From: Amphiscolops sp. MND2022 | Taxonomy: Eukaryota | Assembly: GCA_964187785.1 (NCBI GenBank) | Contig: CAXLNC010000756.1 | Location: 1 to 64,000, forward strand | Direction: 5' to 3' | Length of the DNA: 64,000 nucleotides | Part shown: in pieces, positions 3,618 to 34,969 of the stretch | How the letters are laid out: every line of letters starts with the position of its first letter | Position numbering within the stretch: the first letter of the stretch is position 1 | Translations under genes and position numbers: made by a program | Notes under the pieces: generated by a model | Seen by the model: only the letters and a program-made list of their open reading frames with translations | What the model was told of the DNA's origin: nothing | Database searches by the model: none

Positions 3618-5243
3618 CCTGTAAACTAAGTCCCCTCAGTTTAATGGGACTGATTGACTTTTTGACCTGACTACAAATAACAACGGATATGAACTGCGAA
3701 AACAAAAGAAAATAAAACATAAAGGGCAATATATTTGAAATAATTTTACAGTTTCATAAACAATGGTACATATAGTACAATTAGCGCTTAGAATTGCTGG
3801 CAGCCAACAAGTCTTTAGCTGGTTGAGTCAGCTCTCCGCCAGTCAATAGATGACTTTTCTTCCGTTTTCCAGGCATCTTGACATTTGGAGTCTTTTTGTC
3901 CCAGGACACCTTGGATTGAGCATCGCTTTCCTGACGAGGACCAAACTGACCCTGTGGATCCAACTGCCGCATAAGCTCGGCTTGGTCGAAGTAATTTACA
4001 CTGTCCCAAGGACACCAAGGACAATACGTATCGGTCATCCCGAAAAACGACTCTAATTGAAGAAATGCAGCCACTGATTGATCGGATCTAACTGCTTCAA
4101 ACCCAGGAGGAACATTACGGAAAACGATTGTACTGGGAGTACAACGTCTACATGACTGCAGATGGGATCATCAGTATCAACGTAACCAAATTTAACAGCT
4201 GTTAACACTTGAAAAACCTCATCAAGGCAAAGACAAGCCAACCGGAAGAGCTTGTACAGTAGAGGTCGACTACGTAAAGAAGACTGCTCGAGAAGGAAAC
4301 TAATGGTATCCGTTACGAATAGAGTAGGCTGAACTAGATCAGGGTAAGTTTTCCTTATGTCGTCAAGAAAGGACCGGTACTCCTCACCACGAGCACCTTC
4401 TTGCTCAGACGTGAAAAAGCTGCGAAGTCGAAAGCTGGTGAAAAGCTGGGAAAAGCAATAGACTGCAAGTTCTATTGGCCCGACCAATATGGTCTCGAGA
4501 TCAAAGTAACATAAACCTTTGACAAAATCGCTTGTAAGAGCGTTCTGGCTCTGAATGCTGTTGAACAAATAGGTAACGTAACTTGGGCTCGCTCTACCAA
4601 ACTCTTCCCTATTCATGGTAACCATTTTGCCCAGACTGAGGGTCTCATTTTTTTGTCATGTTTGTCACGTTCGGCTCTGATTTTACAAGCAACTTGCAGC
4701 TTAGGGTCCAGTTTGGAGCGAGAAATGAATTCAGTGACGGTAGGGGCAGTGGTAGTCTTCAGGTCGAGATCGAGAATCGAGGACCAAATCTGTTCGGACG
4801 GAAGGTCATTCGGACATGAACAGCGCCTGTAAAGTTTGTACAGATCTTTGCAGAGTTGTCGATAGGTGTAGAACCCACCGTCTTCGCGGCCCGAGAGACT
4901 GATAGACAAGCAAGTGGCATCTAAACAATACTGGTCAAAGAGATACTTGTCACAGTAGAACATGGCAAATAAAAAGCGTATACTAACAGTCTCGAGACCG
5001 TCGTTGAAAGAATTCAAATCGGCAATGGGAAAGCTCATCGCATACGAGTGACCATTCAAGGTTCTGTGAGCTTGCATAGAAGTACCTGCTTTATCACTCC
5101 TTGCATCTGCTGAGTCAGCTAACGCGATGCAAGGAAATCGGTTATTGCACTCCAATTGGAGAGAAGTTCCGGATAACACGGGAAGTTTCGAAATGTCAAT
5201 GCAACAATTTCGTATGGCCTTCAAAGATAGATTTGGTTAATAC

Positions 5244-5276
5244 CTGTAAACAAAATAACGATTTAAGCAAACTGAC
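5244..5276 (-). other. Candidate intron 3 of the antisense gene (33 bp, possibly shortened)
   Basis: GTCAGT donor ... ttttgtttacAG acceptor between ORFs 5294-5740 and 4613-5224. Confidence 0.45.
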
Positions 5277-5761
5277 TTTAGACAACTCGGGGGCTAAAGA
5301 AGGCACTCTAGATCAAGACTTCCCCCTAGGCCGACCAGAATGTAGCGGATGACACAGAAAAATTCAAGGCAACCAAAAACGCAATAGCTCTTCTTGTGCT
5401 TCAACTTGGGTAAAGAAATGTCTTCGAAACGCTTGACACTCTGGACTCCTTCTTGAAAGAGTGGGCAATTATCTAAAAGCTGTTTGAGGTCAAACGAGCA
5501 ACCATTACAGCAAACCAAGCTTGCGCGAGTAGAATTGGCAGATAACAGACTGGCAAGGAGGTTGACTTCGGCTTGCGTCTGTCCGACCACTCGTCCGGTT
5601 CGCTCCACTAGCACCCTACATAATTGATTGTCCCTCCAGAAACAGATGTGGAGGAAGAGGAACACACCCCTTTGTTCACATTCAAGTGCGTACTGACCAT
5701 CGGCCACCACATAATTGCCAAAATCTTCAACTAGTTGCAAGAAGATGTGGTGGAACAGAAC

Positions 5762-5942
5762 CTAAAGACAACGGAAATATTTGAGACCTGATCTAAAATA
5801 GGTTAAAACACTCCCTAAGTCAATAAGTTGCAAAGTAAAAACATAACATCTAGTCCTTTCAACAGATAGGTTGACATTATTAGCTAATGCATGCTAATCG
5901 GAACTTGAAAGGAAGATGAAGACTGGTATAACTGGCACTGAC
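5762..5942 (-). other. Candidate spliceosomal intron 2 of the antisense gene (181 bp)
   Basis: GTCAGT donor, ...gtctttAG acceptor; splicing gives KDRLT|VLFHHIFLQLVEDF, in frame with ORF 5294-5740; stop-rich AT-rich interior. Confidence 0.7.
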
Positions 5943-7262
5943 AGTTAGTCGATCCTTCCCTCCAGTTGAAATCTGAGAACAGCGCTTGATGGTTGACTAC
6001 CATCCCAATGTCTTTCCATAACTTTCGTAGCAAGCCGAGATCGCCTTCAGAAGGAAGAAAGTGTCCGAAAATGGAAAGTTGGACTCGGACCCTGTTCTCC
6101 GATGAGGAAGTCATATATGTGTTGCCTGCCCTAAACTCATCCTAGAATGGCAGCTTTTCGCCAATGTCAACTAATTGAGCATCCTTGAACTTTCGGTACT
6201 CTAGTTCCAATAAGGTAAGGTGTGAGAATCTTCCCATCTTTGCCTCTAACTTGGTGACGGATGGCCCCAGTGACGGGATCCTCGATTGCCAGGTGCTCGT
6301 ACCGCCATCTTTGATCTTTCCGAAGATGACGCTCTGTTGAGTGGTGTCTCAGGATTTCTTTTGCTCCTCGCTCAGAGATGGAAATTTTCCCCTTAAAAAT
6401 CTAAGAGTAACATTTGGAAGGGTTCCACCTTGGGTCCATTGGACCAGACACGAAAGTCCGGGTCCAGGTCATCCCCTCGAAAAGTTCTTGTTCTTCTCGC
6501 ATAATCTTAGTCGACCTGGCTACACCTTTTCCCGATCTTTTCGACTTAACCTGGGCACTACCTCGGTTTCTTATCTTGCTTTTGTCTTTAACTGCTTCGT
6601 GTCTCAAATCTGCTAGTGTCTGCATTCTGGGACTGGCAGGATTGTCTACGATGTTGCTTGACGGTAAGTCATTTCGACTGCAGTACCAAGGAGAATCTCT
6701 CATGCTAAGTAGACTAGCCTTGAGGACGGCACTGTTCAACATGTCAAATGAGGCCTTAGCCGTCTCAACTGCCACAGCCTTCACGATACTAGTTATCTGT
6801 TCCCGATTTAGAGCTATGGTCATATGACCCTGGGGTAGCCTAATTGGAGAAGCATCTGTAAAACATTTGCGAATCAACTCGAGGCTACTGATGGATAGAG
6901 TAGGGGGTTTTCTCATTCTGACTTCGGTCGGCACAGTAGAGTCTTGGCTAGTGTAATCATTTCGGTCAACGATGGAATTATGGACAGGAGCGGCTAAAGC
7001 ATCGGCTAAAGTCGATTGGGCATGTCTGCTGTATTCCATGTCACTCTCACTTCGCAGTGTTACTTCGACGTTTGCACTAACCTCGGGCACCTCTTGAGTC
7101 TCAGAATTAAACGACGCAACGTCTAGATGTCCGAAGTGTGTTACCTTATTGAACAAAGGATGTCTAAGTGCTGGAGAGAACTCAAATATGAAAGACGAGG
7201 TGTCAGACGACACTTTATTTCTCTCTTTTTCCATTTCGGGTTCATCTGTCGGGAGCTAGGTG

Positions 7263-7369
7263 CTGTGAAAGAAAAGATTTACTGCATGTGGCATTAACCA
7301 CGGGGCCGACATTGGCACTCTCAGTAGGAGGAGACGTCAATTGATTTGAGCGGAGCTCCAATTGCTCAC
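7263..7369 (-). other. Candidate spliceosomal intron 1 of the antisense gene
   Basis: GTGAGC donor; acceptor aaatcttttctttcacAG with a strong pyrimidine tract just upstream of ORF 6401-7234. Confidence 0.55.
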
Positions 7370-9644
7370 TTTCGCTCTGTTTTTTTTGTGACCCGAAGTC
7401 TCAACAAGGGGATCCTCACCTCTTTTGCACTCAAAGGGATCAACCTTCCGGGTAAAATAGACAGTACAACTCTTATTAGAACCACTACTGCTGAAAGAAA
7501 ACCCCCTTCTCTGAAAGAAAACCCCCTCGAAAGTAAAACTCCGACATCAGCGAGTTGGGAGGAAATTTAGTTTTCACTCCAGCCTTCCCAACCGGTGGTC
7601 TATTGAAACTGGTCCGTGGTGTCGTGTCAATTGGCTCGGCGTTCATTGTTTCTGCTTGAGGGGCCCCACCGACAATAGCAGGTTGGGGACCAGTACTATC
7701 TAGTTCAGACACTTTGGCTTCGGATCCGTTGGACGGAGAGTCACATCGGTCGAGACAGGAGGGGTGATCTCAATCACTTCGGTTTCATCACTGGATAAAG
7801 ACCCAGTTTTTTTGGCTCCTACCACGACTGTAGGGCTGGTGTCTATAGCCTCTTCTGACTCTTGGGCAGGTTGGCCAATTGATTCATTATCTAAACGAAA
7901 AAAATGAATAGTCGCGGTTCATTTCCTGCAAAGGTATCCATCTTGCCGCATTCAAATAACAGCTGGGAGAAAATTCGAAAATTTCACACATCTTGAGATG
8001 TTTTCTCGATGGGAGAAGTAATTCAGTCAAATGAAAGAGCCCTGATCAATCTTGATTGTAACAATTTGAAAGAACCAACCCGAAGGTACTTCCATGACGG
8101 AAGATCTGAATTTCGCCGTAAAGAGTCAGCAAGATGTTGTGTTCTTTACACTAAAAGGATGCCTTCTATTGGTTGTGGCTGTTGTGATTATCCTCAAACG
8201 GGACGTCAGACCATCTCTAGTGGAAATTCCTCAGGAATGGTAACAGGATGAAACTGCAACAACTTTGAATCGTGGAAGAATTCGAATAAGAATTGATATG
8301 CTAATGAAGAGTACGAAACGACGAGAATGTTAGTTGCGTGAAATTGAAACAACAATTGAAATCCAAGGTCAAAGAGACTACGCTACAGGTGTAAATTAGT
8401 CTAACCCAGGTGAAGCTACTCAGAGTTTAAATGTCAATTTCAAATCACGAGTAAGAATGCATGTACAAATCCATGTACGTGGTGCAGCTGAATCAACTGA
8501 ATATATTCACACAAATGGAATTGCATTAGCGCTTGAAACACCGAACACTGTTTACTTTGCCTGACGGTGAGCGCACTTTACTACAGACCATTGTTTACTT
8601 TGAAGTATTAAGGCCTTTGGACTTTGGACTAAAGCTCTACCTGACTGCAAGCGAATACATGTATCAAACAAAAAATGTACCGGGACTGATGGTACACAGG
8701 AGTATATACTTCTATTTTTTGACGTCACTAACACAATTGAACTGTTCGTCTATTCGACCGCACTCATTACTTACATGTATTGTTTCACCTTACTAGATTC
8801 TTGGTATCACTACTTAACTATTGGTAATTAACACCTCTAATAAACGACCAGTATCGTCGACTACAATAAACACTTTGATGAAGTGCAAAAGTGTTTCGAG
8901 AGATAATCTTCAAAAGAACTACCAACTGTATGGCTTCTAATTGTGCGCCTCTATTTGGACACAAGGTTTGGCAAGGAGTCATGGCTACCTGGGACATGAC
9001 ACCAAATATTGGTCAAAATAACTGTCTAAAAATTACTACTGAATTTGAACAATGTGTACTGAAACTGCCAGTCATGTACTAATTCAAAGTCTAAACTTTA
9101 CCAATTTCATCATGTTACCCTACCACCATAATTTGACTCATCATCTCATATGAAATTCCATCATAGTTAGCAAATTAATTAATATTCGCCATTTCCTTAT
9201 AATCTCATCCATTTTATTCAGTTCTTAGTCACTTATTTGTCATCAAATCAACCTGATTGGCCAACCCAAACATTGCCGGGTCGACCGATGGTCTTTGAAG
9301 CTTTTTGTCGACAGAGTGTTAACGGTAACACCTCGTCATGTGATGCCGAGACGTCTTTGAAGAGGAAAGTAAGATCAACTCAAGTGGCTATTATTAAAAT
9401 AAAACCACCAAACAAATATGAATTGTCGACGAACATTAAGTCAAATCGAAGCCTAAGGAAGGAAAATTTTAACGAAAGATGAAGATGAATTTCCCGCTTA
9501 CTCTCACCCGCGAAAATATTATCGGACCTCAGGTCAGTTTGACCGCACAAAATCATTCTTCTGTTACAACGTCTCAAAACCAGCTGACCCTGACCTTGTT
9601 CAAAGATTGCAAGAAAACTATTTCTTCAACGCTTTATCAAGGAA

Positions 9645-12499: not shown

Positions 12500-13560
12500 A
12501 ATGCAGCCCGGGCGCGCACTGCCACAGGTCCACTGGCATGGGACGGAACACTTTTCATAGGTTATACTACATCTTACTAGTACTCATCTTACTAGTACAT
12601 AGTACTCATAGGTTGTACTACATCTCGTAAATATTATGGCCTGCTGCATTGAACCACCACACCGGCTCCTTTAGTTGCTGCCCGATTGTTCAATGACTCA
12701 AGCCTGTCTTGTTCATCTTTCTTCTGCTGTCCTGGAGGCTGGTTGAAGGTAGATTGACTGTCTTCTTGGGGGAAATAGTTAATCGTATCGATCGAGTTGT
12801 CCTTTACACTCTGTGGAAGTTTGTAGGCATTCCAAGATTGTTCAGGACGTTTGTCTTCTCAAGTTAGGCAGGGAGGTATATACCTGCGCAGCTCTCCTTC
12901 TTCGTTCTCGTCTGTTGATCAATTGTTTGACTTCGAATGAAGCATTCATTTATTGTTTGTATCGGATGCTATCAACGTTGATTCTTTGACAAAAGGGTTA
13001 ATTTTTCTTTTGAATTAGCGGGATGCTTTCCTGACTTCTGATTGAGACTCAGCTTCTTTCAATCTTTTCAAATCACAAGGGTTGACATTTTGCCAAAGTC
13101 GCTTTTTGTTAGCTAATTTTACACTCTTCTAATCGGTTTCTCATTCTTCAAACTGTTTCTTTTTGCATCTGCTGACGTCATTATGAAACCAATTTGTAAT
13201 GGGCTGTTTTTTTCGGATTCACTGCTGTTTCTATGGACACTCATCTCCCATTTTCCTTTCGTCGTCTTGACTCATGTTCACACAGCGGTTATGAGACAAA
13301 GTATGTTTTTTCGAAGGGTTATTTGCTTCTGCGATATTCAGATTGGCTGTCCAGCAGTTGGTGACTTCATCATTTTCGATCCATTAAGCATTCCCGAATA
13401 GGAAGCAATAACAGATAGGTCTTCTTTGTTTTCGTATTTCCGAAGATTAGATTTTGTGACGCGTCTTGATATATCTATACTCTTATAATCAATCATCATC
13501 CACCACCCAATTTTTGAATGTCTAGAATTGAGATATGTATCTTGAGTTTTAATGTATCTA
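12500..13560 (-). pseudogene. Highly degraded gag-like remnant
   Basis: Coiled-coil/low-complexity residue pattern followed by a knuckle-like relic (KEPVWWFNAAGHNIYEM*YNL); many stops. Confidence 0.3.
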
Positions 13561-13821
13561 ATTTATATTGAATGGCATACCTTATACTGTAAAGCCATTA
13601 CCTGATGTATAACCGTTCAAAACTTCAAAAAAGTCTTCACCGTCAAGTTGTCAGCGTTTTCTAAAGACCTAACAACTCAGTTAGAGTCTCCTTTAAAGAC
13701 TTCATTTCACGATTCTGAAATAATCTAAATTAAAGAAACCATTCCAATTCAAAAACAAGTACTCTCACTAGTGCGACCAGCTCATCTCCCTTCTTTCCTT
13801 CCATTCTCTATTATAACTTTT

Positions 13822-14172
13822 TGTAATAGTCACCCCTTGATTCGATATTTCCAATATCGGTACACAAATCCTTCTGTACTAATCACAAAAAGTGATTCGA
13901 CTAATTGTCGGTACAAAACAACTTTTCTTCTGTACTAACCATTCTTCAAAACTGGTTCGACCTCGTAGTCGGTAAATTCATCTCTTCTGTAATAATCACA
14001 ACGAGTTATTCAGCTTCGTGCTGGTGCACTTAAACCTTCTGTACTAATCAAGTTGATTCGACTCATGTCGGTACAATTCACGTACTAACCTTCTTTGTTT
14101 CGACATTTGTGTAGGTACACTCTTTTCTGTACTAACCAAAAAACTCTTTAGTTCAACTTTTCTGTTGGTACA
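13822..14172 (+). repeat. Array of 7 structured three-way-junction units in a family-B 5' leader (copy 1)
   Basis: Consensus TGTAC-T-AA(T/C)CA(C)-loop-(G)TG(A/G)TT-CGAC-loop-GTCG-GTACA, with compensatory stems CGAC/GTCG, CAGC/GCTG, CAAC/GTTG, CGATAT/ATATCG. Confidence 0.85.
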
Positions 14173-14439
14173 ACTCGAATAAAAAACTTTTTTTATAGTT
14201 TAAATGTCTCCTTTTTTGTTTTTTAATGACTTCGTTGGCCTCCTTGCGATCGTTCTTCTTGTCGTCGACAAATTTATGATGGATTTCATTACCTGATGAA
14301 TCTTTTTCAACTCAAAATCAATGTTTCTAACCAAAAATCATGCACCTATAATCATTGTTTCATTCAATTCTGGCAAACTTGTTTTTCTCATGTCCTTATT
14401 AAAAAATAGTCACATCCCTTTCCGCTAATTTCCAACGGT

Positions 14440-15527
14440 ACACATGAACCCTTCCCATTCCCATCAACCATAAACTCTGCTTTTTCATAACTCAATTTTG
14501 ATATCATTTTCCCTACTGTTTTTAATCACACCTCCGCTAAATGTTCAACCTCTCTCCTTTCTTATATTTTAGCTTCTCTTTCTTCTCCAACCTTATCATG
14601 GCTGTTTCACAATTCATGATAAATACGAATTTTATCCTCTTCCAATGACATTCTTTCATTTTCTCCTTGTTTCTCACACTCAAAATTTATTCCTGAAACT
14701 CCATGGTAAGATTTTCATCCACTCCCCACTGAACCGTTTATTTACCCTGATATCATTTTCGATCTTGGTTCAGATACTACCTTCATCGTCATTCATAATG
14801 TCTGATCAACCTCCTTCTTTCCTTCTCCATTAACCTTTTCCAATAATGATTCCCATTCTCGGCTTTCACGCGAAACCACCCAAAATTTAACCGAACTCTT
14901 CAAAAATCGTATTTATTACTCAACAGTTCCTCTTTCCTATGAAACAGACCCTGAATATATTTACACTATATCTCCTATACGTGAACATCACGACTCATAT
15001 ATTTATCACGACACACAATCTTAAGTAAAAACTCCTGGTGAATCTTCATTTTCCATTTCTTTTGCTTTTCCCCTTCAATCTAATGAAATCTTCCGTAAAA
15101 AATTCTAACCCAATATTTACAATCCTATTGCTCTTCTTTTCACCATACTTCTCATAAATCTCTGAGAAAGGAATAACCTCCTACCTCAACATGATTTCAC
15201 TCCCTCTGCTATACAGGAACTCCTCCCAAAAGAAACTCTTTTTGACCTTCCCATTAATAAACAACTTCGCACTATTTAACATAACCCCCATCATTCGCTC
15301 TCTACCAATATTTTTCAAACTCACCACTTTCAATTACATTTTTTTTCAAAATCTCACTTTAACTGCGCAATTTAGAGAAGTAATTCAAATCTACTCTCTT
15401 TTTATTCGAAAAAAAATAGACACAGTTACCAATTTGTTTGGAGTTCTAAAATCGCTTGCATTATATTCCTTTCCCAATTCTCTAAAGTTGAAGTCCTACC
15501 TTCTTCCGCTACCTCTGAGAATCATCA
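14440..15527 (+). pseudogene. gag: Family-B gag N-terminal fragment (duplicated at 16447-17534)
   Basis: 15300-15527 aligns with 37680-37960 (gag region of B2: ...tacctctga(g/a)aatcatcat); C/T-rich, G-poor sense strand typical of family B. Confidence 0.55.
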
Positions 15528-15828
15528 TGCGGATTGAAAATAGTGACCCTTACAAGTGAAAGAGGAGTCAATGATGAAAACAGTGTCTGAAATTGCTTCA
15601 AATTGGAATCTCAGGTCCGTCCATGTGGAAGACTGGGTAAATTCCTGATAGAATGAAGTTGTAGTTAATCGGTGAAGTTGTAGGCCACGGAGGCGAAGAA
15701 GGAGGCGGACGAAAAGAAGTTTCAAAAACAAAAGAAAACTGAATTCTGGATTTTTTGTGGCGCTATTTTGATTTGTATCATAAACACGTTACACACGTTC
15801 TTTCCTTCCATTCTCTATTATAACTTTT

Positions 15829-16179
15829 TGTAATAGTCACCCCTTGATTCGATATTTCCAATATCGGTACACAAATCCTTCTGTACTAATCACAAAAAGT
15901 GATTCGACTAATTGTCGGTACAAAACAACTTTTCTTCTGTACTAACCATTCTTCAAAACTGGTTCGACCTCGTAGTCGGTAAATTCATCTCTTCTGTAAT
16001 AATCACAACGAGTTATTCAGCTTCGTGCTGGTGCACTTAAACCTTCTGTACTAATCAAGTTGATTCGACTCATGTCGGTACAATTCACGTACTAACCTTC
16101 TTTGTTTCGACATTTGTGTAGGTACACTCTTTTCTGTACTAACCAAAAAACTCTTTAGTTCAACTTTTCTGTTGGTACA
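15829..16179 (+). repeat. Array of 7 structured units (copy 2, inside the tandem duplication)
   Basis: Same as 13822-14172, offset +2007. Confidence 0.85.
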
Positions 16180-17534
16180 ACTCGAAAAAAAAACTTTTTT
16201 TATAGTTTAAATGTCTCCTTTTTTGTTTTTTAATGACTTCGTTGGCCTCCTTGCGATCGTTCTTCTTGTCGTCGACAAATTTATGATGGATTTCATTACC
16301 TGATGAATCTTTTTCAACTCAAAATCAATGTTTCTAACCAAAAATCATGCACCTATAATCATTGTTTCATTCAATTCTGGCAAACTTGTTTTTCTCATGT
16401 CCTTATTAAAAAATAGTCACATCCCTTTCCGCTAATTTCCAACGGTACACATGAACCCTTCCCATTCCCATCAACCATAAACTCTGCTTTTTCATAACTC
16501 AATTTTGATATCATTTTCCCTACTGTTTTTAATCACACCTCCGCTAAATGTTCAACCTCTCTCCTTTCTTATATTTTAGCTTCTCTTTCTTCTCCAACCT
16601 TATCATGGCTGTTTCACAATTCATGATAAATACGAATTTTATCCTCTTCCAATGACATTCTTTCATTTTCTCCTTGTTTCTCACACTCAAAATTTATTCC
16701 TGAAACTCCATGGTAAGATTTTCATCCACTCCCCACTGAACCGTTTATTTACCCTGATATCATTTTCGATCTTGGTTCAGATACTACCTTCATCGTCATT
16801 CATAATGTCTGATCAACCTCCTTCTTTCCTTCTCCATTAACCTTTTCCAATAATGATTCCCATTCTCGGCTTTCACGCGAAACCACCCAAAATTTAACCG
16901 AACTCTTCAAAAATCGTATTTATTACTCAACAGTTCCTCTTTCTTATGAAACAGACCCTGAATATATTTACACTATATCTCCTATACGTGAACATCACGA
17001 CTCATATATTTATCACGACACACAATCTTAAGTAAAAACTCCTGGTGAATCTTCATTTTCCATTTCTTTTGCTTTTCCCCTTCAATCTAATGAAATCTTC
17101 CGTAAAAAATTCTAACCCAATATTTACAATCCTATTGCTCTTCTTTTCACCATACTTCTCATAAATCTCTGAGAAAGGAATAACCTCCTACCTCAACATG
17201 ATTTCACTCCCTCTGCTATACAGGAACTCCTCCCAAAAGAAACTCTTTTTGACCTTCCCATTAATAAACAACTTCGCACTATTTAACATAACCCCCATCA
17301 TTCGCTCTCTACCAATATTTTTCAAACTCACCACTTTCAATTACATTTTTTTTCAAAATCTCACTTTAACTGCGCAATTTAGAGAAGTAATTCAAATCTA
17401 CTCTCTTTTTATTCGAAAAAAAATAGACACAGTTACCAATTTGTTTGGAGTTCTAAAATCGCTTGCATTATATTCCTTTCCCAATTCTCTAAAGTTGAAG
17501 TCCTACCTTCTTCCGCTACCTCTGAGAATCATCA

Positions 17535-19330
17535 TGCGGATTGAAAATAGTGACCCTTACAAGTGAAAGAGGAGTCAATGATGAAAACAGTGTCTGAAAT
17601 TGCTTCAAATTGGAATCTCAGGTCCGTCCATGTGGAAGACTGGGTAAATTCCTGATAGAATGAAGTTGTAGTTAATCGGTGAAGTTGTAGGCCACGGAGG
17701 CGAAGAAGGAGGCGGACGAAAAGAAGTTTCAAAAACAAAAGAAAACTGAATTCTGGATTTTTTGTGGCGCTATTTTGATTTGTATCATAAACACGTTACA
17801 CAAAAAATACCTGTGCTAGAAGTTTTCTATGATAGAGTTCCAAATTTTGATGTTCAAATAGGAATTAGGAAAAAAGAAATATGTTTTAAAAGTACCATAA
17901 ATGTAAAAAAATGTTGGGTTCCCATACTAAACTTAGGAAACATTTCGAAAATTTAACATGACAGACAATTTGTCAAACGTAGTTTGAGAAGTTGTAGTGG
18001 GAGATCTATGGGGTGCAATATGAGTAGATTTGTGTTCTGTATTTTGTTCAGATTTAAACATGAACGAAATGACTTTTGCAGAGATAAAGAGGAGTTCATT
18101 ATAAGCGTAGGCCTCTTTAGAATGAGATGTATAATAAGACGTGTCTTTGTCGTCGAGAGGTGAAGAGACAAGATGTTCAAAAACTGCTATTGGTTGACTA
18201 TTTGTTTGGGAATGTTGCAGGGCAACCAAAAATTGTCGTATTGTATGAGATGATCTTGAGGCACAATGAGTGGACGAGTTGTATCATTATGGGTAAGAAG
18301 ACAAGAGTACTGTTTGATGGGATCGTAGTTACGTAGGTATCCCGTAATTTTGGAGTGTTCAAGTGTATATAGAGTTGTCAATGCGAAAGGAGAAATGTTT
18401 TTGTAGTTTGCGAAAATATAGTTCTGTGGTTTTTTGTACTGGATAAATTTAGTAGGAGTTTGATAATGTGTGGCCTTTTGTGAAGTAAAAAGAAATGAAT
18501 GGTCAGTTTCATCTGTTCCGAAATCGTAGATAGACTAGTGAAGAAAGTTAAATTGCAACGAAAAGAGTTTTACGGCGTTGTCAAGCCAGTATTGGTATCG
18601 GGACATTAGTTTGGAGGCAATGGATGTGAAAAAATCTTGATCTTTATCATACACTTTAAATGTGTAGTCGGTAGGGTGCATGTAAAGAGAAGTTAGTTGT
18701 GATTTAAAAGTGAATATGTCGTGAGGATTGGTATCATATGATCATCTCTAATCTAGGAGATTAAAGGTTTTGAAGGTAAATTATGTGGATATATAGGCAA
18801 GGGAAGACACGCCGGATCTTTCATATTTTCATATTTCGTTTTTGGCGGTGGTGGTGTTCCACGAGATATATCATTATTAGTTGTTTCAGGGGGTGTGCGC
18901 TCTTGTGGAGATAGATTATGATGTTCGATTTGATCAAAATTAGTAGTAGGTTGATCTTGGTCCAATTCTTCAAGGAAGAGAAATGTACAGTCATTAAATA
19001 GAGGTTGAGTTACAAAACAAGATCAGTAGTGTTTTGTTTGCTTGTGTCATATTGAAGATACTATTCTGAACCTACGCGAACGAATGGCTTTATCAGATGT
19101 TTTTGGTAGAGGTGCTGAAACTGTATTAACTGGAATATTTTGAAAAGTTTAGAAGTGAAGATAGACAGCCAAAACAGTTGAAGGATTTATTTTGGAGTGA
19201 CAATTTTGTGTTACAAGAACAATCTGCGCAAGAGAAGTGAAAATTCAGACTGGCGTAGGTTTTAAAAGATGGCGGAGTAAAGGGGTAATTTGTTTTGGAA
19301 TTCACTTTGACAGGACTTTCATTTTCATCA
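17535..19330 (-). pseudogene. Post-env distal accessory ORF region (W) of B1, unknown function
   Basis: ORF pieces 18753-18965, 17933-18229, 17532-17738; the LLFVRLLLRLRGLQLHRLTTTSFYQEF...DLRFQFEAIS segment resembles B2 55647-56177. Confidence 0.5.
17763..17802. mobile_element. 40-bp TGTG...CACA insertion at a TTTTT^AAAAA site (also at 15756-15795)
   Basis: tgtggcgctattttgatttgtatcataaacacgttacaca; removing it restores a continuous - strand frame KTSSTGIFKNPEFSFLLFLKLLF. Confidence 0.5.
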
Positions 19331-20430
19331 TTGATAGGATGTATTTACAGTTTGGATTGACAATTGAATATTGAGGTAATGTAGAGTTTGGTAATTGTGA
19401 AGTATTGCTGATGGTGTTCTTAGTTTGTTTAAGAAAAGATCTTATACGTTTTGAAACGAATTCAAATCGTGTGAATTTGGAATTCGTTTTTGGACGTTTT
19501 GTATATAAAGGTGGTGGTGAATTAATTCCAGGAGGATTAGCAGTAGGAATTGTAGGATCATCTGAATTATCAGAAGATTCATCTAATGGGTGTTAAAATA
19601 TAGTTGACAGGGGAAGTTGTTGTGAACTTTTATTGGGTGGTAATGGTCTTTGAGTCTGCAGTCATGATGGAAAAAAAAGAGGTTTGTCATCTTCTGAGCA
19701 TCAGACGGAAGATAAAGATCTGTATCAGTTAGTTCAATAGGACTGGCATGTGTATTATATAAAAGCAGGAAATAGAGAGTAATGTTTGTTAGGGAAAAGA
19801 GTGTTTTTGTATCAAAACGATGTAGTATACTTAAGTATAGGGACCGTAAAATACAATTTTGCCATATTCTAAAGCAGGAAGTTTAAGGCTCGCGGTTAAA
19901 ATCTAGATACGTGACTTCAAGTGAAGGTGGTGTTGTCTTGTGTCCTTTTTTAACGATGTGAAATACTGGATGAGGGTTTAGGCCATGAAACGTAAGTTTA
20001 ACTTCAAACTTCAGTTCTAAAATAGGGTTTGTAGTCTTCTAAGATCTGTTTATTTTCTTGTGTTTGATAGTGAATCGTTACTTGCAATGAAACGTTCTGT
20101 AGGAATGGGAAAACGAGGATTGTTTTTGGGTTGTCTAGTGTGGCACCGTCAACGCGTATAGAAGAGTCTGCATAATTAGGAAATGGATGTCGAGAATGTT
20201 CTGCTATAAAACTTTTATTTATTCTCACGTGTGCAGGAACATGATTAGGGATGAGAACTTCACAAAATAGGTTGCCTGAAAGATATGCAGTTTGTACGTC
20301 TGAAGACAGTTAATGAAGCGTTGTCAACACGCGATGTAAAATAGGATTGTGGAAAGTGTTCTGAAGAGAGTCTATCAGAAGATCGAGGTTATGCTTGTCG
20401 TCTTGAAAGACGTGATGCTGAATTACTTTT
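19330..20430 (-). repeat. Second, env-deleted copy of the pre-env/post-env cassette of B1
   Basis: 19700-20428 matches 22882-23600 (ORFs 20004-20228 vs 23200-23412); 19330-19660 matches 20430-20760. Confidence 0.85.
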
Positions 20431-20689
20431 GTATTACAGTTTGGATCGACAGTTGAATAATGAGGTAATGTAGATTTGGTAACCGTGAAGTATTGCTGAT
20501 TTTGTTGTCATTCTTACTTTGTTCCTTAAAGGATCTTATACGTTTTGAAAAGAATTTAAACCGTGTCATATTTGGAATTTGTTTTTAGGCGTTTTTAATA
20601 AAAAGGTGATGGTAAAATAATTCCAGAAGGTTTAGCAGAAGGAAGTGTTGGATCTTCTGAATTATCCACTGTGTTAAGTTATAACTGTG

Positions 20690-22860
20690 TTAAGTTATAG
20701 TTGAAAGGGAAAGATGTTGTGAAATTTTAATGGGTGGTAATGGTCTTTCAGTCTGAGCATCATTTAGGTCTTTGACCATTTCAGTTGTAAAAATGTTGAA
20801 AAAACCATGTGCGATAGAACTAAAGAAAGTAATATTTTGTTTAAGAGTTGTTTATGGAAACTATTTTATAAAGTTTGATAAGAAATGTTAAGATTGATTC
20901 TACAAAAAAGGAATGTTGAAATATATATTCTACATTGAACATGGATATCCAAACAATGAAATAAAAGCATCAGAGAATCATGTGGGTGTAAAAAGTGAAG
21001 TTAAATTAGGAAGTTTGGCATGTAGTACATTACGAAATGTACTATGAGGATAATCATCCGGAGAACTTGCATCATAATTTTTGCGTATTAGAAGAGAAGA
21101 AGGAATAGCTATAAGCTTTTCCTAGGAGTAGTGAAAGTGTATCAGAGTGTTTTGAAAAGAGAATTCCGTTCCAAAATTGTTCAAATTCAGCATTAAAAAA
21201 TATACCAGCTTCTTGAGCTGTAATTGTATTAGGTCGTATTGTAGTTTTTCTTTGGCATAGTGTGTGTTTTTCGTTTAATTGGTTCAAGTCTAAGAATGTA
21301 GAAGTCTTGATCATCCAAACCGAGATCGAATTCAATGCTGATTCGAGGATTATTATCACATGCAATATGAGTAGCATAGTCATGTTTGTCTGGTAATTGG
21401 GTCTACGCACATAAGAGTATCTTCGAAATCTATAAGAACACGATTGAAACAACGATCAGCTTTGTATAACGGTATTGTAAAAGTGGACAATCATAAAGCC
21501 TTGCAGTTGAACCTGCAACAAAAAGAAAACTACTTCTGTTTCCTGTTGGAAGTAATCCAGCAAGTTGAGGATTTTGTAGTGACAATGCAAGTATTGTAAG
21601 TAATTGGTTTCGTTCTAGTTCACATACAGTATGAAGAGCGTTCAACTCTTGTACTGTCATGGAGCGAAAAAAATGGTTAACTGTTTAATCTATTTTTGTG
21701 TTTATACGTGTTTATACAGCAAATTTTTGTTTATTTATCATAATCAATTGGAGCTAGGTTATTTGAAACATTTAGTGCAGGTAAATGGTATTGGGTATTG
21801 TTAGGGTCTAAAACTATTTGCCCTGAGATATATTCATTTATTACAGAAGGAGCGTTTGGTTGTCCTGAATGCATGTTAAAACCATCAGTATATGTAACAA
21901 AAGATCTGAATTTTGTGCTGCATACAAAAGTTCTAGTTTGCTAAGAAGGTTTGAGCTTGTGGAAAGACTTCGAAGCGTGAAAGACTAGGATTGTGTGGGT
22001 TTTGTGTGTGTGGAGCATGTACGTATGGTAAAGGGGTTCCTTTTATACCATTGCTGATGTCCAATTTTTTTTGGAATGGAAGAATATACACAAAGTTCAG
22101 TTTCAATCCAGTAACGTTCTACTATCTTAGTCATTCGTCCAACAAAAGCTTGTAATGTAAAATTGAGACAAAAGTCATCACTAAACCAAACTAAAGTATG
22201 AGGAGTGTTTGTGGTTGGTTCAGAGAAACCATAGGCAAAATGACATGGTAATTGATGACCATCAAAAACGTGTTCAGTGTCATCATATTTAAGTTCTATT
22301 TCGGAAACTAAAAGTCGCCAACTGACTTGTTAACTTCAAATTGGCGATGAGCATGACAGTTATGAAGAGGGCTTCGTTTTGGATCATAAATCCAAGTTTT
22401 AGCTGCAGACATGAATGTAAAAGTACCAGTGTACATATTGGTACACTGATAGGAAGTAAAAAGAGTTTGAAATTGTTCTAGATTTTCTTGAAAATATTGA
22501 TCTTCAAAACGAATGATGTTTTTGTTGTAATTTAAGTTGTTCAAGGGTTTTTTATTAGTACCAATGAGATGTCTAATCAGGTCTTTACCTTCCAAAGGAT
22601 CAAACGTAACAGGAAAGGGCATCGTGTTATGGTTCCAAACAGTTCTATCAACGCTTCTATATTTTACAGAGCCTTGACAACATTATTTTTGTTGGCAAAA
22701 GCTTCACATTTGAAAACTTTAACGCGTTTATCTTTTGCGCGAACACAGAACCGTGCTTTAATAATAGCGTGTTGTTTATCAGATGGAGCTTAATTGAATT
22801 ATTTCACATTCAATGGGTTGAAAAAGTTATGTTGTTTTGCACAGTCATAATGGAAAATTA
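20690..22860 (-). pseudogene. env: env-like glycoprotein, chuvirus-G / gB-like class III fusogen motifs
   Basis: N-terminal YDCAKQHN..LNVK (22849), KCEA, MPFPVTFDPLEGKDLIRHL, LHTVCELERNQLLTILALSLQNPQLAGLLPTGNRSSFLFVAGSTARLYDCP (21430-21660), FWNGILFSKHSD, hydrophobic C-terminus SDAFISLFGYPC...SSIAHGFFNI. Confidence 0.75.
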
Positions 22861-22879
22861 TGAGGCTTGTCATATTTGG

Positions 22880-24500
22880 ATCATCAGACGGAAGATAAAG
22901 ATCCGTATCAGTTAATTCAATAGGACTGGCATGTGTATTATCTAGAAGCAGGAAATAGAGTGTAATATTTGTTAGGGAAAAGAGTGTTTTTGTATCAAAA
23001 GGTTGTAGTATACTTAAGTATAGGGACCGTACAGTACAATTCTGCCATAGTCTAAAGCAGGAAGTTTGAGGCTCGCGGTTAAAACCTAGATACGTGACTT
23101 CAAGTGGAGGTGGTGTTGTCTTGTGGTCTCTTTTAACGACGTGAAATATTGGATGAGGGTTTAGGCCTTGAAACGTAAGTTTAACTTCAAACTTCAGTTC
23201 TAAATTTGTGTTTTGTAGTCTTGCAAGTTCTGTTTTCTTTCTTGTGTTTGATAGTGAATCGTTAGTTGCAATGAAACGTTCTGTAGGAATGGGAAAACGA
23301 GGATCGTTTTTGGGTTGTAGATTGTGGCACCGTCAACGCGTATAGAAGAGTCTGCATAATTAGGAGTTGGATGTCGAGAATGTTCTGCTATAAAATTTTT
23401 AGGTATTCTCACGTGTGCAGGAACATTACTAGGCTTGAGAATTCCAGAAAATAGGTTGCCTGAAAGATATGCAGTTTGTACGTCTGAAGACAGTAATGAA
23501 GCGTTGTCAACACGCGATTTAAAGTAGGGTTGTGGAACGTGTTCTGAAGAGAGTCTATCAGAAGATCGAGGTTATGCTTGTCGTCTTGAACGACGTGATG
23601 CAGAATTACTTGAAAAAGCGGAAACGTTGAGTGTTGAAGTGTGGATACTAAGTCTTCGTGAAGGAACAGGTCTACAATACTATCTATGTTGTGGAAAGAA
23701 ACCTCAACTGGTAGAGTCTTGAGATTGTGGTAGGTATTCTGAAGAGGTGTTTGAAAGATTTGATAGTAAAGTGGATTGTTTTCGAATATGTTTGAGAGGA
23801 GGAGAGATTTTTGAAGTCTTGGAAGAGTTCGATTCCAAAGGTAAATGTAATGAGGGACGAGGAGAATATTCCGTATCAGGTGTATGTACAAGTTTTAGTT
23901 GAGGTTGAAGACGAGCTGTTTTGTGTAGCAGTGGTTGTATGTAGTTTACAAGTCTTGCAACAGTTTCTGGATTGGTTATGTGTGTCAAAGGAGTATGAAT
24001 GGTGATGGTTGAGATTGAGAACGGGAAGTAATAGGTATTTCGGATATAGGTGGTCTACTAATATGTGATACTGTTGTAGATACCGAAGAAGTTGTATCTG
24101 AGTTGTTATAACAGTTTGAGAGTCATCACGATACATATGCGGCAAAAGTGGAGTTTATCATCAAATGTATAGTGTAATTTTTTTGTAAAACAAGAACGAA
24201 CCGTATTCTAGTCAAACAGTGCATCATGTTCATCGCGGATTGTGATGCACATTGTAATCAGATTGTGGATTGTGATCATTGAGTGTAATTAGAGAGAAAT
24301 GGAAACCAGTTAAGAATTTTGGTACACAGTGAGTAAAAATAGCTTCAAACAATGCTTCCATTCGTGTGTGAAGTGGAAACCAGTCAAAGTACGTTTTTGT
24401 AGAGAGTGTAAAGTAGTCATTTACTGTATTTTGATCACTACGCGTAATTTCAAATGACACTGTAACGAGCAAAACTCTTAACGCGTTTCTGAAATGTGAT
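22880..24500 (-). pseudogene. Accessory ORF region between pol and env of B1
   Basis: Overlapping ORF remnants 24230-24472, 23876-24145, 23704-23988, 23409-23891, 23200-23412; the last is related to B2 47538-47990. Confidence 0.5.
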
Positions 24501-24544
24501 CACGTTTTTGTCGGCTGTTAGTCGAACTAGCAAGATCTTGCTAC

Positions 24545-27500
24545 TTTGTTGCGGCATTTGTATCGTATTGGTCTGAAGTAGAAGACAGACTTGAAGCAGA
24601 AGGAGATGTATCAGAAGAAGAATCCAGGATGGTAGTTTTCAACGTTTTGCAGGTGGTATCAAAAGACGATAATCGTTTCTTTGTTGTTGTCTCAAGTTAA
24701 ATGAATTTTAACATTTCGTTCAATTGCAGATTGGTTTTGAGAGGGATGTCAATGTCGGTCAAGGAGTGGATTATTTTGATGAGTTTCAATTATTTGTTTG
24801 AAAAGTGAGTTGTCATTTGAGGGAAGATTAGGAGAGGTGTGATTTGATATTGAAGAAGGTATTAAGGGTTTTGATTGGTAAGATGATGAGAAATCGTTTT
24901 GTGATGATTGTTTATTAGAAAGGGATTCATCTGAAGTAAAAGAAGATGAGTCGCTATTTGCATAATTTGTTTGGGAAGGTCATATTGCAGAAAAACATGA
25001 GGGTACAAAAAAGTTCTTTTGGATAATAGTGTATCGAAAGATTTCGATGTGTATGAAAGGTAGAACCATCCTGAGAAGTTCATACGTGACATCCGAAAGT
25101 CTATCGAGTACTTTGTATGGTCCAATCCGACGTGGTTGTTGAAAGATGAACGTGTTGGAAAATTACGTTTTCATAAAAAATTTCCAACACGGAGAGGTTT
25201 TCTTTCATGATAAATTTTTGTAATATAGGCTTGCTTGAGAGTTGTTTTTACGAAAAGTGTAGAAAGTATATTAGAGAATAGATTTGTAACAAAGCAAGTT
25301 CTACTGCCAGTAACAATTGAGGAAGAGGTTTAGAAAATGTACAATAAAAGAATGAACTAAGATCTGCTTTGTCATAATATGAATGTTCTGGCAGTTCAGA
25401 ACAATACTTTGAAGTACAGGTTCTGTTTAAGTCTCGATTGAGGTTCAAGTCAAATGTGAGTGAAATTCGAGGTTGTGTGTAGAAAACAGTTTCTTGATTC
25501 TTCAGGAGAGACTTTTGAAGAAGAAAGAGGTTGTGAAACATGGGCATAGGCATATATCTTAACTTCGTGAGCCCAATCTTTCGGAATGTTTTGCAGGAAC
25601 ATACGAAGGTGTGTACTAATGTTTTTATTTTGAACTTCAACGAGTCCATTTGTCTTTGTGGAGTAAGGAGTTTTAGGAGAGTGACGAAATCCCATAAGAG
25701 TACATAGTTGTGCCATATCAGTATTAATCTATTTGGATGGAGGATCACTGACAAGGTATATAGGTGAACCGAACTTGATAATCCAATGGTGAAGAAAATA
25801 TTTTACAGCAGTTTTAGCGTTCTTAGATTTGATAGGAACAGTGACATCAAAGTGGCTAAAAGCGTCAACAATGACATGTATGTATGAATATTCTGTGTAG
25901 GAGGATTGATAGGACCTTTTGTGTCCCATGAAATTCTGTTTTTGAAGCCGGAAGCATGTTCAGAAAAAGATTTTTTTGGAGCGGTTTGAATTTTGTGGTT
26001 AAAATATTTGTTACGTTGACATTCAAGAGAATCATGTAAGAAAATGGAAGAACTTCTCGGAAAAAAGGTAATTAATAATACTGTAGGAAGGTGTTTTAGG
26101 TGATTTTGAGACCTTTGTGAGAATTGTCATGAAGTTTATTGAAAGTTGTTCTGGAGAGACAGAATGGTAGGGAAATTTCGGAAGTGGTTTGAGGAATGTT
26201 AGTATTTAGGCCTGAGGATGTTGCAGAAGAGCTTTGTTTTTTCGAAAAAAGGCTGATAATATTGGTAGAGTTATCGATTAAGAGTTGTGAAAAGATTTTA
26301 TAATATGCATGTAAACAGGGAGTACCAGTGATTTGAGGTGTTAGAAACATGGTTTAGTGAGAAAGCCAGTAATATAGAAATTTGAGCGCTGGATCTTGTG
26401 ACTGTTGTTGCTTAAGAGGTTGTTTGTCCAGAGATTGATCATCACGCAAGAAAACGCCTTGAAAATAATTTTTGTAAGAAAGTTGAATCATAAAATGGAA
26501 TAGTTTATAAACAAAGTGTAGAAAGTTTGATATGCTGATGTGTCTCCAAAGCATTAGTAGAAAATGTATCAGTTTTGGAATTTGTGATAGTTGAAAAGTT
26601 TCTGTATAAAGGAATACAGTCAGGTGTGAAGGGTGCAGTATCTTATGGAATTCTTGTACAAAATTGTATAAATCTTATACAAATTCTTGTATATGTATGT
26701 ACAATATATATAAAACTGTATAAAATCTTATGGAATTCTTTTATAAAATATCTTCATCATCACTAATGAAATCGGTTAAAAGTGATTGTTGATGAAGTGC
26801 TTAATTATGATTTTTCTAGGAGTTTTGTTTGAAAAGTTGTGATGGGCTTAAAAGAAAACGATTCAAGAGATTTGAAAATGATATCGTAACCCTTGTCTTT
26901 ATTACGGGTGGAAAATTGGTCTGCCCCATAATGAGCAAGAATAGGGTGAGAATCATGTTTTTGATGATGTAAGACTTCTGCGTGTATAATTAAGCAAGCA
27001 ATGAACAAGTTTAGGTGTGTTGTCTTCAAAGATTGCAATGTCAACTTGCGGAGAACGTTGTTCATGTTTGAGTTGTTTAACTTGTACTTCAGTTTTATTA
27101 AAAAACGCCAGAGCATGTCAGCAACTGAAAGAGTTTTCCAGATGATCGATTTTGAGTTGGGGAAACATTTGGTAATTGCATTTGGGCACGATAGAATTGT
27201 GGACTAAGGCTGCCTTTTTGTAAAACATTTTAAAGGAGGTTCATGATCAGCGATAAAATGGATTATATGAGGAGATCCAAACATGTATGTACCATACCGC
27301 GAAGTTCACGGTCAAGTAAAGAAAGTTTTTGTTCTTGTGAGTTATGGCTTTGAAAGTTGTAACAAGCGACTTTCATTTTTTTTTCTTCATTAAGTTGGAA
27401 ACTGACTGCGCCTAATCCAACAAAAGATACACCAATTGTATTTAAAAAAAATGGATGTTTTGTATTAGGTATTGAAGTTCGGTATCGGATGTGAGAGAAG

Positions 27501-32200: not shown

Positions 32201-32400
32201 TTTATAGAGTTGGGTTCTGTTTCAAATGGAACAGGGTTTGTATATTGAAAAATGATTTATGTAAGTATGGTATTACATCTTCTGTAAAAGAACGTTTTTG
32301 TATATGTTGTGGTGATGATACAAATGGTGTTGAAAGCATTTTAATTGGTATGAAAAGGTATGTTCAACATGAGGGTCGGTTGATAAGAAAAAAATGTTTT
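29200..32400 (-). pseudogene. gag: Long gag with N-terminal extension and CCHC knuckle
   Basis: YCSYCLRTNHSISAC at 29680-29724; VKLVDAEDIANDKIR; capsid-like segment 30050-30400; RS-rich C-terminus; start uncertain. Confidence 0.8.
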
Positions 32401-32717
32401 CCATAAAGGATACACGTACTGAAGAATAAGACATTGTAGATTATAATGAAAATTATATGGAATATTTTGATCGACGAAAACAAATTGAAGAAAGATTACA
32501 AGTACAATAGTACGAAAAAGTAAGAGGTTGTTAGGTATTAACGAAGTGAGAGTACAAATAGTATGGTATATACCAAGGAGTCCAAAAGAGGAAGTTTTAC
32601 CCTTTGGACCATAAGTAAATTGTTAAAAACTTGAAGTTTAGGTATTAAAGGTACCAAGAAGCTGTCAAAGAACCAGCAAGTAGACCAAGAGAGAACCAGA
32701 GTCAAATATTAAATCGT

Positions 32718-34848
32718 AGTATTCAAAGGCTGAAGGCATTTAGAGAATTGGTTATGTTTTGTAATATAATATTTTGTTATGTAAATATAGGTTGTAATAA
32801 AATGTGTATTATTGTATTATAGTATAGTATTGTATTTCTATCGAGTGTAGTATAATATGTCATATATTGTATATAAAAGAGTTATAATGTTGTATATAAA
32901 TCACGTGGAACTTTTTTTTTTAAAAAGAAACGTATAATAGCTGAAAATGTATGAGAAGTGGCTAGAAACTGAGTCTCAACTAGCAGAATCGCTGAATAGC
33001 ACTGTAGAGAAACCAACACGTATCGCACGTCTGTGGTTGGAACGATGAATTGAAAACCCGCAGGAATCACTGAGGTAGTGTTTGGAACGGAGAAAAATAA
33101 TTTTTCCAGCACGTATCACTGTTAAAGTGGTTGGAACGAAAGTATATTAACCAACACGAATCACATTTTTTGTGGTTGGAACAAAGAATAATTGACAAAA
33201 CGTATCACTTCGAAAGTGGTTTGAACGGAAATGAAGCATAACAGCAGAAAGTACGCGGGTTACGTAGTCAGAACCATACCAACATGAATCAATTTTTGAG
33301 TAAAATTGGTTGGAACGATTAAATAACAGCGTTAGAAAAAAAGAAGAGGAGAGACTGTGTGTCAAACAAACAGTTCTTGGTAGCTAGCTTATCTTTACTT
33401 TCACAAGATCTATTAGGACTGAGATCTTAGATTGTTCTTCTTTTTCTCAGATTAGAAATCGTCTTCAATACAAGAGTCGAGTAATTCTTCTGATTATAAA
33501 GTCACACTGATTACTTCAGTGATTACATCTAGTAAAGATTAGATTCTATCTCATTGAACGATTCACAGGATCATTACTTCTAGAATGAAAGTATAATGAG
33601 ATTATTAGTAAATGTCAGCATCTTAATTCTAAAGTGTTAACTTCTGAATCAAGTGACATATGTCAATGTTTTTGGTCGAATAGTTTAGATATATTTCAAG
33701 TTTATGAAATTACTTGGGGACATGCATCATGGCAATACAACTTGACAGCGTCGTCGAAAATGTTGAGCCACATGAGAGAGAGAGAGAAGTGAGAGTATTC
33801 AAAGGCTGAAGGCATTTAGAGAATTGGTTATGTTTTGTAATATAATATTTTGTTATGTAAATATAGGTTGTAATAAAATGTGTATTATTGTATTATAGTA
33901 TAATATTGTATTTCTATCGAGTGTAGTATAATATGTCATATATTGTATATAAAAGAGTTATAATGTTGTATATAAATCACGTGGAACTTTTTTTAAAAAA
34001 AAGAAACGTATAATAGCTGAAAATGTATGAGAAGTGGCTAGAAACTGAGTCTCAACTAGCAGAATCGCTGAATAGCACTGTAGAGAAACCAACACGTATC
34101 GCACGTCTGTGGTTGGAACGATGAAATGAAAACCCGCACGAATCACTGAGGTAGTGTTTGGAACGGAGAAAAATAATTTTTCCAGCACGTATCACTGTTA
34201 AAGTGGTTGGAACGAAAGTATATTAACCAACACGAATCACATTTTTTGTGGTTGGAACAAAGAATAATTGACAAAACGTATCACTTCGAAAGTGGTTTGA
34301 ACGGAAATGAAGCATAACAGCAGAAAGTACGCGGGTTACGTAGTCAGAACCATACCAACATGAATCAATTTTTGAGTAAAATTGGTTGGAACGATTAAAT
34401 AACAGCGTTAGAAAAAAAGAAGAGGAGAGACTGTGTGTCAAACAAACAGTTCTGGGTAGCTAGCTTATCTTTACTTTCACAAGATCTATTAGGACTGAGA
34501 TCTTAGATTGTTCTTCTTTTTCTCAGATTAGAAATCGTCTTCAATACAAGAGTCGAGTTATTCTTCTGATTATAAAGTCACACTGATTACTTCAGTGATT
34601 ACATCTAGTAAAGATTAGATTCTATCTCATTGAACGATTCACAGGATCATTACTTCTAGAATGAAAGTATAATGAGATTATTAGTAAATGTCAGCATCTT
34701 AATTCTAAAGTGTTAACTTCTGAATCAAGTGACATATGTCAATGTTTTAGGTCGAATAGTTTAGATATATTTCAAGTTTATGAAATTACTTGGGGACATG
34801 CATCATGGCAATACAACTTGACAGCGTCGTCGAAAATGTTGAGCCACA
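32718..34848 (-). repeat. 1076-bp tandem duplication of the B1 5' leader / LTR-like region (32718-33793; 33794-34848)
   Basis: ORF pairs offset by 1076 (32882/33958, 33147/34223); near-identical sequence. Confidence 0.95.
33013..33317 (-). repeat. Array of 6 stem-bulge-stem units in the B1 leader (duplicated at 34089-34393)
   Basis: - strand GTT-CCAAC-CAC(n)-loop-(n)GTG-AT(A/T)C(G/C/A)T-GTTGG; one unit has a CAATTTT/AAAATTG upper stem. Confidence 0.85.
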
Positions 34849-34969
34849 TGGACGCCGTATAAATCGTATGTATCGTCTTGTTCAGACCTGCCGTGCACTG
34901 ACAAAAAAAGAGTTCGATACAGCAAAAGTGACACCGGGACTCGCATATCTCCCGCAATAAAAAGAAGCT

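Follow-up and report, generated by a model that had tools for sequence, protein, structure and literature searches.

A repeated, structurally conserved unit in the 5' leader of a large env-bearing Ty3/gypsy element from Amphiscolops sp. and its possible role in RNA packaging

Results

A seven-unit array lies in the leader of a decayed retroelement copy

The window analysed here, a whole contig, is a stretch of 64,000 nucleotides from Amphiscolops sp. MND2022 (assembly GCA_964187785.1, contig CAXLNC010000756.1, positions 1 to 64,000). It carries a seven-unit array on the forward strand, inside a decayed and truncated copy of an 18.8-kb env-bearing Ty3/gypsy family (family A). Of the element, this copy has kept the 5' LTR, the primer site in mutated form, the array and the start of a broken gag, and nothing beyond. 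The features of the copy, and a related array elsewhere in the window, are as follows.

13467..13768 (+), 5' LTR of an old subfamily, ~300 bp; it matches both ends of copies L053, L067 and L069, and its end motifs are those of ten long-ORF copies
13769..13780 (+), primer-binding site for tRNA-Met(CAT), with one substitution in the window copy
13781..13821 (+), pyrimidine-rich spacer between primer site and array, from the sequence
13822..14172 (+), array, units 1–7 at 13822–13864, 13875–13915, 13931–13976, 13988–14028, 14040–14075, 14081–14119 and 14128–14172
14226..14797 (+), decayed remnants of small hydrophobic ORFs before gag, by DNA homology to long-ORF copies
14798..15528 (+), 5' portion of a broken gag, with a clade-specific N-terminal domain (46% identity to A and 33% to B by tblastn); the element ends after the gag start
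15798..17802 (+), tandem duplicate of 13791–15795 (99.9%), with a second array copy at 15829–16179
33013..33330 (−), array of a sister family (family B), bulged hairpins; duplicate near 34089–34406, and a further example at L101:2185–2485

An initial annotation, made from the letters alone, had described seven units with these stems in a retroelement leader upstream of a gag fragment. The units and stems were found where it had placed them, and tblastn located the gag fragment at 14860–15528, with 46% identity to a long-ORF copy. The unit length of ~40–47 nt had to be corrected to 36–46 nt. Each unit consists of a P1 arm, a U, hairpin P2, hairpin P3 and the second P1 arm, and a UUC flank precedes most units. 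All 14 core pairs are intact only in units 2 and 5; unit 6 is largely broken (P2 2 bp, P3 1 bp). The window copy belongs to an older subfamily, in three relatives of which the LTR pairs are 79–86% identical. The duplicate at 15798–17802 is either a recent duplication or an assembly artefact. It is one of three near-perfect kilobase tandem duplications on the contig (13791–17802, 32718–34850 and 48601–54080), for all of which the same two origins apply.

The rest of the window holds two more decayed members of the giant retroelement clade, at 17900–34850 (−) and 37600–58200 (+), whose coding strands are strongly skewed to C over G; the second contains a 1.8-kb segment in three tandem copies (48601–54080). 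A degraded LTR retrotransposon of BEL/Pao type, with DUF1759, aspartyl protease, rve and DUF5641, lies at 58927–63855 (−); BEL/Pao elements are not known outside animals, and its presence points to an animal host. Several open frames of 155–284 aa at 4056–7255 (−) gave no Pfam match and possibly belong to another mobile element.

The host family is a Ty3/gypsy retrotransposon with env, as judged by its sequence

Among the many copies that an integrase search turned up with open frames close to 2,640 aa, ten were taken for study. These long-ORF copies are ~18.8 kb in length, and their LTRs of ~320 bp are 99–100% identical in 10/10. The order is LTR, primer site, pyrimidine tract, array, three small hydrophobic ORFs, gag-pol, ORF2, env, ORF4 and ORF5. 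The fused gag-pol of 2,640 aa contains the Pfam domains Retrotrans_gag, RVT_1, RT_RNaseH and rve, in that order. The env product belongs to the Monjiviricetes fusion family (PF24664; E 1.8e-27 in family A, 3.2e-23 in family B and 2e-32 in a further family, C); the window copy is truncated before env. The primer is tRNA-Met(CAT): a matching tRNA 3' end occurs 8 times in the assembly, and ARAGORN called tRNA-Met(cat) at 2 of the 4 loci checked. With LTRs, primer site, the gag–RT–RNase H–integrase order and env all present, the host element is identified as a Ty3/gypsy LTR retrotransposon with env.

Gag carries one CCHC zinc knuckle followed by an RS-rich stretch. The small pre-gag ORFs of the long-ORF copies encode 48, 37 and 78 aa (for example L031:2990–3610), and two or three such hydrophobic ORFs (37–78 aa) precede gag in the env-bearing families A, B, C and F (leaders of L031, L101, L121, L123 and L133). 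A Gag N-terminal extension (L031:3611–4510) and domains of ORF2 and ORF4 (L032:1846–3204 and 6454–7938) are common to A and B only, and none of the three matched Pfam. The model of the Gag N-terminal domain had a pLDDT of 59, a best Z of 4.2 and no Foldseek match below E 0.001; the ORF4 model had a pLDDT of 48. No RNA-binding fold was identified in these two models, and the Atlas gave no usable match for the ORF2 or Gag domain. Six of the ten long-ORF copies adjoin tandem repeats or satellites upstream (L035, L037, L041, L045, L047 and L049), suggesting targeting of, or survival in, repeat arrays.

The array is retained in the leader, close behind the primer site

A degenerate pattern covering part of the unit, matched exactly, occurred 1,338 times in the 1.07-Gb assembly versus 0 for the reversed control. 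A DNA search returned 603 first-look candidates, and the 40 that were scored showed 77–100% identity. A covariance model built from 56 units and run over 221 kb recovered 7/7 window units, their 7 duplicates and the 5 units of the long-ORF copy L031, and nothing else below E 0.4.

Rather than being absent from most intact copies, the array is kept in 10/10 long-ORF copies examined, with 4–7 units each, and in 17/17 additional family-A leaders that have a primer site. These 27 loci form the young-lineage set: the long-ORF copies and 17 leaders taken from a further 20, of which three were set aside (a family-B leader, a repeat and a leader without a primer site). The set holds 133 units, 3–7 per locus, and a locus from another set, selected for the array, reaches 8. 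Every young copy examined has at least three units, and the later units of an array are often identical recent duplicates. From the first 100 entries in a list of 239 LTR/primer junctions we also picked 20 by hand, the array not being required and two being known to have no exact pattern. At least three units were present in 16; one had a single unit before a deletion, two had deletions and one was decayed. The unit parser tolerates four substitutions, and badly decayed units are therefore missed in these counts.

The first unit begins 47–79 nt after the primer site in well-preserved copies and 73–79 nt after it in most young copies. Units are spaced by ~52 nt, and the array lies within the first 500 nt after the primer site. 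In family A, at least ~130 nt separate its end from the first AUG and ~750 nt separate it from gag. The unit is absent from the LTRs and from the remainder of a long-ORF copy. The near-constant distance to the primer site could point to a pause, strand-transfer or primer-positioning role in reverse transcription, on RNA or on single-stranded cDNA, and equal folding of the antisense strand (see below) would fit such a role. However, in the standard retroviral scheme the sequence 3' of the primer site, where the array lies, is copied late; in addition, copy number varies from 3 to 8, and other families use the same primer without an array. We consider this role decidedly improbable.

The exact unit pattern had 0 matches in metagenome contigs and 0 in viral contigs. 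An RT search found no relative in the viral contigs and, among 79 metagenome loci, one 49% relative whose leader is not included. The array is known from one genome so far.

Pairing in the hairpin stems is under selection

In the young-lineage set, 1,855/1,862 stem cells were paired, and the two hairpin loops had 28 and 23 distinct sequences. The mean pairwise difference per site was 0.017 in stems, 0.258 in loops and 0.242 in linkers; stems thus change ~15-fold more slowly. For covariation, we aligned 56 distinct units in which P1 and P3 were required to be intact, a criterion that biases the percentage paired upward. Pairs 2, 3 and 4 of P3 were changed on both sides in 23, 18 and 6 of the 56 units, and pair 3 of P2 in 16. 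Compensatory changes were present at 3/4 P3 pairs, 2/6 P2 pairs and 0/5 P1 pairs. The covariation score was reached by 0/500 shuffles; event-type measures fell within the shuffles (258 and 378 of 500), and by our own count the double-changed cells trace to about five or six independent events. The earlier reading, that the hairpins covary around free loops, therefore applies to P2 and P3 but not to the closing stem P1. Its claim that structure, rather than plain slippage, has shaped the units is supported by the slow stems and by the P2 and P3 compensations.

Old-family copies behaved differently. After two near-duplicates were dropped, 28/30 loci with 171 units were analysed; 87.5% of cells were paired, and single changes were evenly split between G-U (77) and A-C (75). 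This even split, unlike the young lineages, is the outcome expected under neutral decay. Their double changes were Watson-Crick in 10/15 cases, versus roughly one third estimated for independent changes. That excess, the few independent compensations and the identical recent duplicates would all be expected of a slippage repeat without function, its hairpins kept complementary by template-switch mutation. Against this, subfamilies share conserved stems, junction base and UUC flank, although the co-duplicated loops and linkers have diverged by ~25%; the minimum of three units in young copies and the even decay confined to old ones argue likewise. We regard the absence of function as highly improbable.

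The array might instead act as double-stranded DNA, as a cluster of transcription-factor, insulator or chromatin sites. The 5' UTR tandem repeats of ZAM, Tirant and accord bind proteins as DNA, according to the accessible text of the sources (PMC5408687, PMC8872304). Much of the unit is invariant in sequence, and the two strands fold equally, both of which would fit a DNA role. However, P3 is changed on both sides at three pairs, and covariation of this kind argues against a purely DNA role. The P2 spacers of the old family range from ~1 to 13 nt, which a dimeric DNA-binding protein would hardly tolerate, and the inner stems of family B alter in sequence and length while staying paired. A DNA role is therefore improbable. 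As judged by these comparisons, the array is a selected, copy-variable, modular cis-element in the 5' leader.

P1 may close each unit or join neighbouring units

The window array had a folding energy z of −3.63, which 0/100 shuffles equalled. When units were folded in isolation, 85% of 52 formed a three-way junction. In 12 whole leaders, however, P1 was predicted to pair with a neighbouring unit (mean probability 0.77) rather than within its own unit (0.05). P1 is invariant, and its GUAC core is a self-complementary 4-nt palindrome. The outer P1 arms, those of the first and last units, are conserved in 27/27 and 26/27 loci, respectively, which, together with a homologous closing C-G pair in family B, speaks for closure within the unit. 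The initial annotation had assigned a three-way junction to every unit. The isolated folds agree with it, and on these models it is plausible; with P1 invariant and without covariation, its core self-complementary and inter-unit pairing predicted in context, a closed junction per unit is a candidate fold.

The same annotation took the sense-strand RNA as the working form. The sense strand does fold, but the antisense strand of the window array folds equally well (z −3.53), and distinct G-U and A-C events in young copies (6 vs 4) do not separate the strands.

A flank that the earlier reading had missed precedes the units. Positions −3 to −1 are U, U and C in 97–99% of 87 distinct unit-plus-flank sequences, in which positions −6 to −10 and +1 to +6 vary. 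This unpaired 5' UUC, by its conservation, belongs to the unit. The motif UCUG, which spans the boundary between linker and P1, starts 128/133 units. The linkers are pyrimidine-rich, and UACUAAY occurs in nearly every family-A unit, buried in P1/P2; the motif is not kept in family B, whose leader contains it once. We considered a 3' splice site and rejected it: the order UACUAAY–pyrimidine–CAG was found only in CAGC-type units (32/52) and not in family B.

The sister family B carries a homologous array with a different fold

Family B has 73% RT identity to family A and is its sister in the tree (98/96). Young B copies encode a 2,695-aa gag-pol and have primer site and env as in A. The family-B array of the window sits in a 1,057-bp tandem duplication (99.1%). 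B units align base by base with A units, without the extra P3 arm, and are predicted to fold as a 5-bp stem, a 6–7-nt bulge and an inner hairpin, with two stem types. Across 9 loci, all five stem pairs are Watson-Crick in 45/45 young units, three of the pairs having changed on both sides, and the inner stems vary in sequence and length yet stay paired. We also imposed a B-like fold on the A units and rejected it, the main helix being 80% paired and the covariation score 0.145, versus 0.140 for shuffles. The last B unit resembles the three-helix form of A. Taken at the level of sequence and pairing, the A and B arrays are homologous and folded differently.

The base before the B stem covaries with a bulge base (G-C in 25 units, C-G in 19). 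This hints at a small two-pair pseudoknot, but the change is one event and follows unit type. One B unit has a GACG loop in 29/32 copies; the other B loops vary (26 distinct of 35). The commonest B unit type has no UCUG, and a pyrimidine-pyrimidine-pyrimidine-G flank is present in 35/45 young and 73/138 old B units. The whole B array was not more stable than shuffles (z −1.5).

Families C to F have ~45% RT identity, the same primer site and env homologues in all. The unit of the A/B array was absent from their leaders examined, as judged also by the covariance model; C, E and F share the primer site, the knuckle and env, yet have no such array. C to F also have no counterpart of the Gag N-terminal domain, the ORF2 C-terminal domain or the ORF4 core common to A and B. 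This co-occurrence of array and domains amounts to one evolutionary event on the tree. In family D (~48% RT identity), which uses the same primer site, an unrelated hairpin is repeated three times downstream of that site at intervals of 48–52 nt; its 5-nt loop is invariant and its stem varies (L135:2847–2986; also L127 and L139). The family-C leader of ~1 kb (L123:1700–2300) has several long-range inverted repeats and a G-rich conserved block.

The array matches no described RNA family

Rfam gave 0 matches in the window, and the best E values were 1.2 for a young A leader and 2.9 for a young B leader. With no family at the gathering threshold, the view that the array lies outside described RNA families holds. 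Inspection for hammerhead, HDV-like and twister cores revealed none, and a self-cleaving ribozyme was rejected. No description of the array was found in the literature searched, subscription papers lying outside its coverage. The predicted fold and the array form are thus new for a cis-element of a retroelement leader, with a putative function.

Discussion

The reading we favour, tentatively and with slightly less than an even chance, is by analogy with retroviruses: the array would be a multivalent Psi-like packaging and dimerisation signal for Gag on the genomic RNA. Each unit would offer one putative Gag site, with UCUG at the linker/P1 boundary as the candidate for the single zinc knuckle. 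P1, with its GUAC core, could find its partner in the same unit, in another unit or in a second genome and so hide or expose that site, and copy number would tune avidity for a very long (~18 kb) RNA. This reading draws on the position and repetition of the units, the half-buried UCUG together with a single-knuckle Gag, the palindromic P1 core and the GACG loop in family B. We also count for it the three-copy hairpin of family D, which has a similar place in the leader.

Several observations count against packaging. The commonest B unit has no UCUG, the antisense strand folds equally and the B array is not more stable than shuffles. Families C, E and F have no such array, so that the lineage can replicate without it. 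The self-complementary dimer candidates are only the 4-nt GUAC of P1 in A and the one GACG loop in B; the free variation of the family-A loops argues against loop-loop kissing.

In both MLV and FIV, UCUG serves as a site for Gag/NC; in MLV it stays base-paired until the RNA dimerises (PMC13736810), and GACG loops stabilise MLV dimers (PMC5874298). In the accessible text of these two papers, the MLV Psi/dimer linkage (SL-A to SL-D) resembles the array in its leader position behind the primer site, palindromic stems, partly paired UCUG, GACG tetraloop (here in family B) and zinc-knuckle Gag. It differs in having four different stem-loops, where 3–8 repeats of one multi-helix unit are found here with free family-A loops, and there is no sequence homology. 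The MLV parallels consist of 4-nt motifs, and every parallel drawn here is short and was recognised only in retrospect. The packaging signal of MHV is marked by repeated structural units (PMC12911879), and, as far as the accessible part of that source goes, embecovirus packaging signals and coronavirus SL5 repeats resemble the array in units kept by covariation and in variable repeat number. In those RNA viruses the repeats all sit inside a single stem-loop, as bulges or loops, unlike the separate units in a retroelement leader.

Among retroelements, ZAM, Tirant and accord also combine variable-number leader repeats with an env-bearing Ty3/gypsy structure in the accessible text (PMC5408687, PMC8872304). 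Their units are 102–307 bp and have been described as DNA protein-binding sites, unlike the ~42-nt units with compensatory pairing described here; the accessible text of PMC8872304 makes no mention of hairpins or secondary structure. The 'ancient errantiviruses' with a gB-type env (PMC13524379) share, in the parts seen, the LTR, tRNA primer site, RT–RNase H–integrase order and Monjiviricetes-fusion env. The present element differs by its 18.8 kb, its fused 2,640-aa gag-pol and several extra ORFs. The accessible main text of that paper does not mention UTR or leader, RNA structure or tandem repeats, and a term search of the supplement also gave 0. MDG1-group leaders with sORF1 and sORF2 likewise have small ORFs, some hydrophobic, before gag, a likeness by description in the accessible text; MDG1 elements are without env, unlike the small-ORF families here (PMC11952523).

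The strongest competing reading makes the array an RNA element that serves the nuclear export, retention or translation of unspliced RNA. Like the RRE, CTE or IRES modules, it would provide repeated docking sites for a protein of the host or an accessory protein encoded by the element. With gag-pol behind three small ORFs and followed by four more ORFs, unusual expression is needed. UACUAAY, which we take to be a branch-point/STAR-protein motif, is present in nearly every family-A unit, the pyrimidine-rich linkers presumably resemble PTB sites, and the ORF2, ORF4 and Gag N-terminal domains are common to A and B only. However, the motif lies buried within P1/P2 and family B has not kept it, the array ends well before the first AUG and gag, and families C and F have small leader ORFs without an array. 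We consider this explanation rather unlikely.

Packaging could also work through a more elaborate arrangement, which we think unlikely and which would make the array a new class of RNA among retroelements: a copy-number-tunable array of switchable modules. An ancestral unit would have been rewired between the sisters, from a bulged hairpin with a possible pseudoknot (B) to the three-helix form (A), with the conserved bases kept. Exchange of palindromic strands within a unit, between units or between genomes would then unmask several Gag or accessory-protein sites at once.

To our knowledge, selection of their own RNA by Ty3/gypsy elements, especially by the very large env-bearing elements of invertebrates, is poorly mapped. 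The leader described here is a compact, repeated and naturally varied element with built-in controls: 3–8 copies, compensatory variants, a differently folded sister and relatives without an array. With it, RNA valency in retroelement assembly or export becomes directly testable with short RNAs. The array also appears to present an RNA module that has switched its predicted secondary structure while homologous bases stayed in place.
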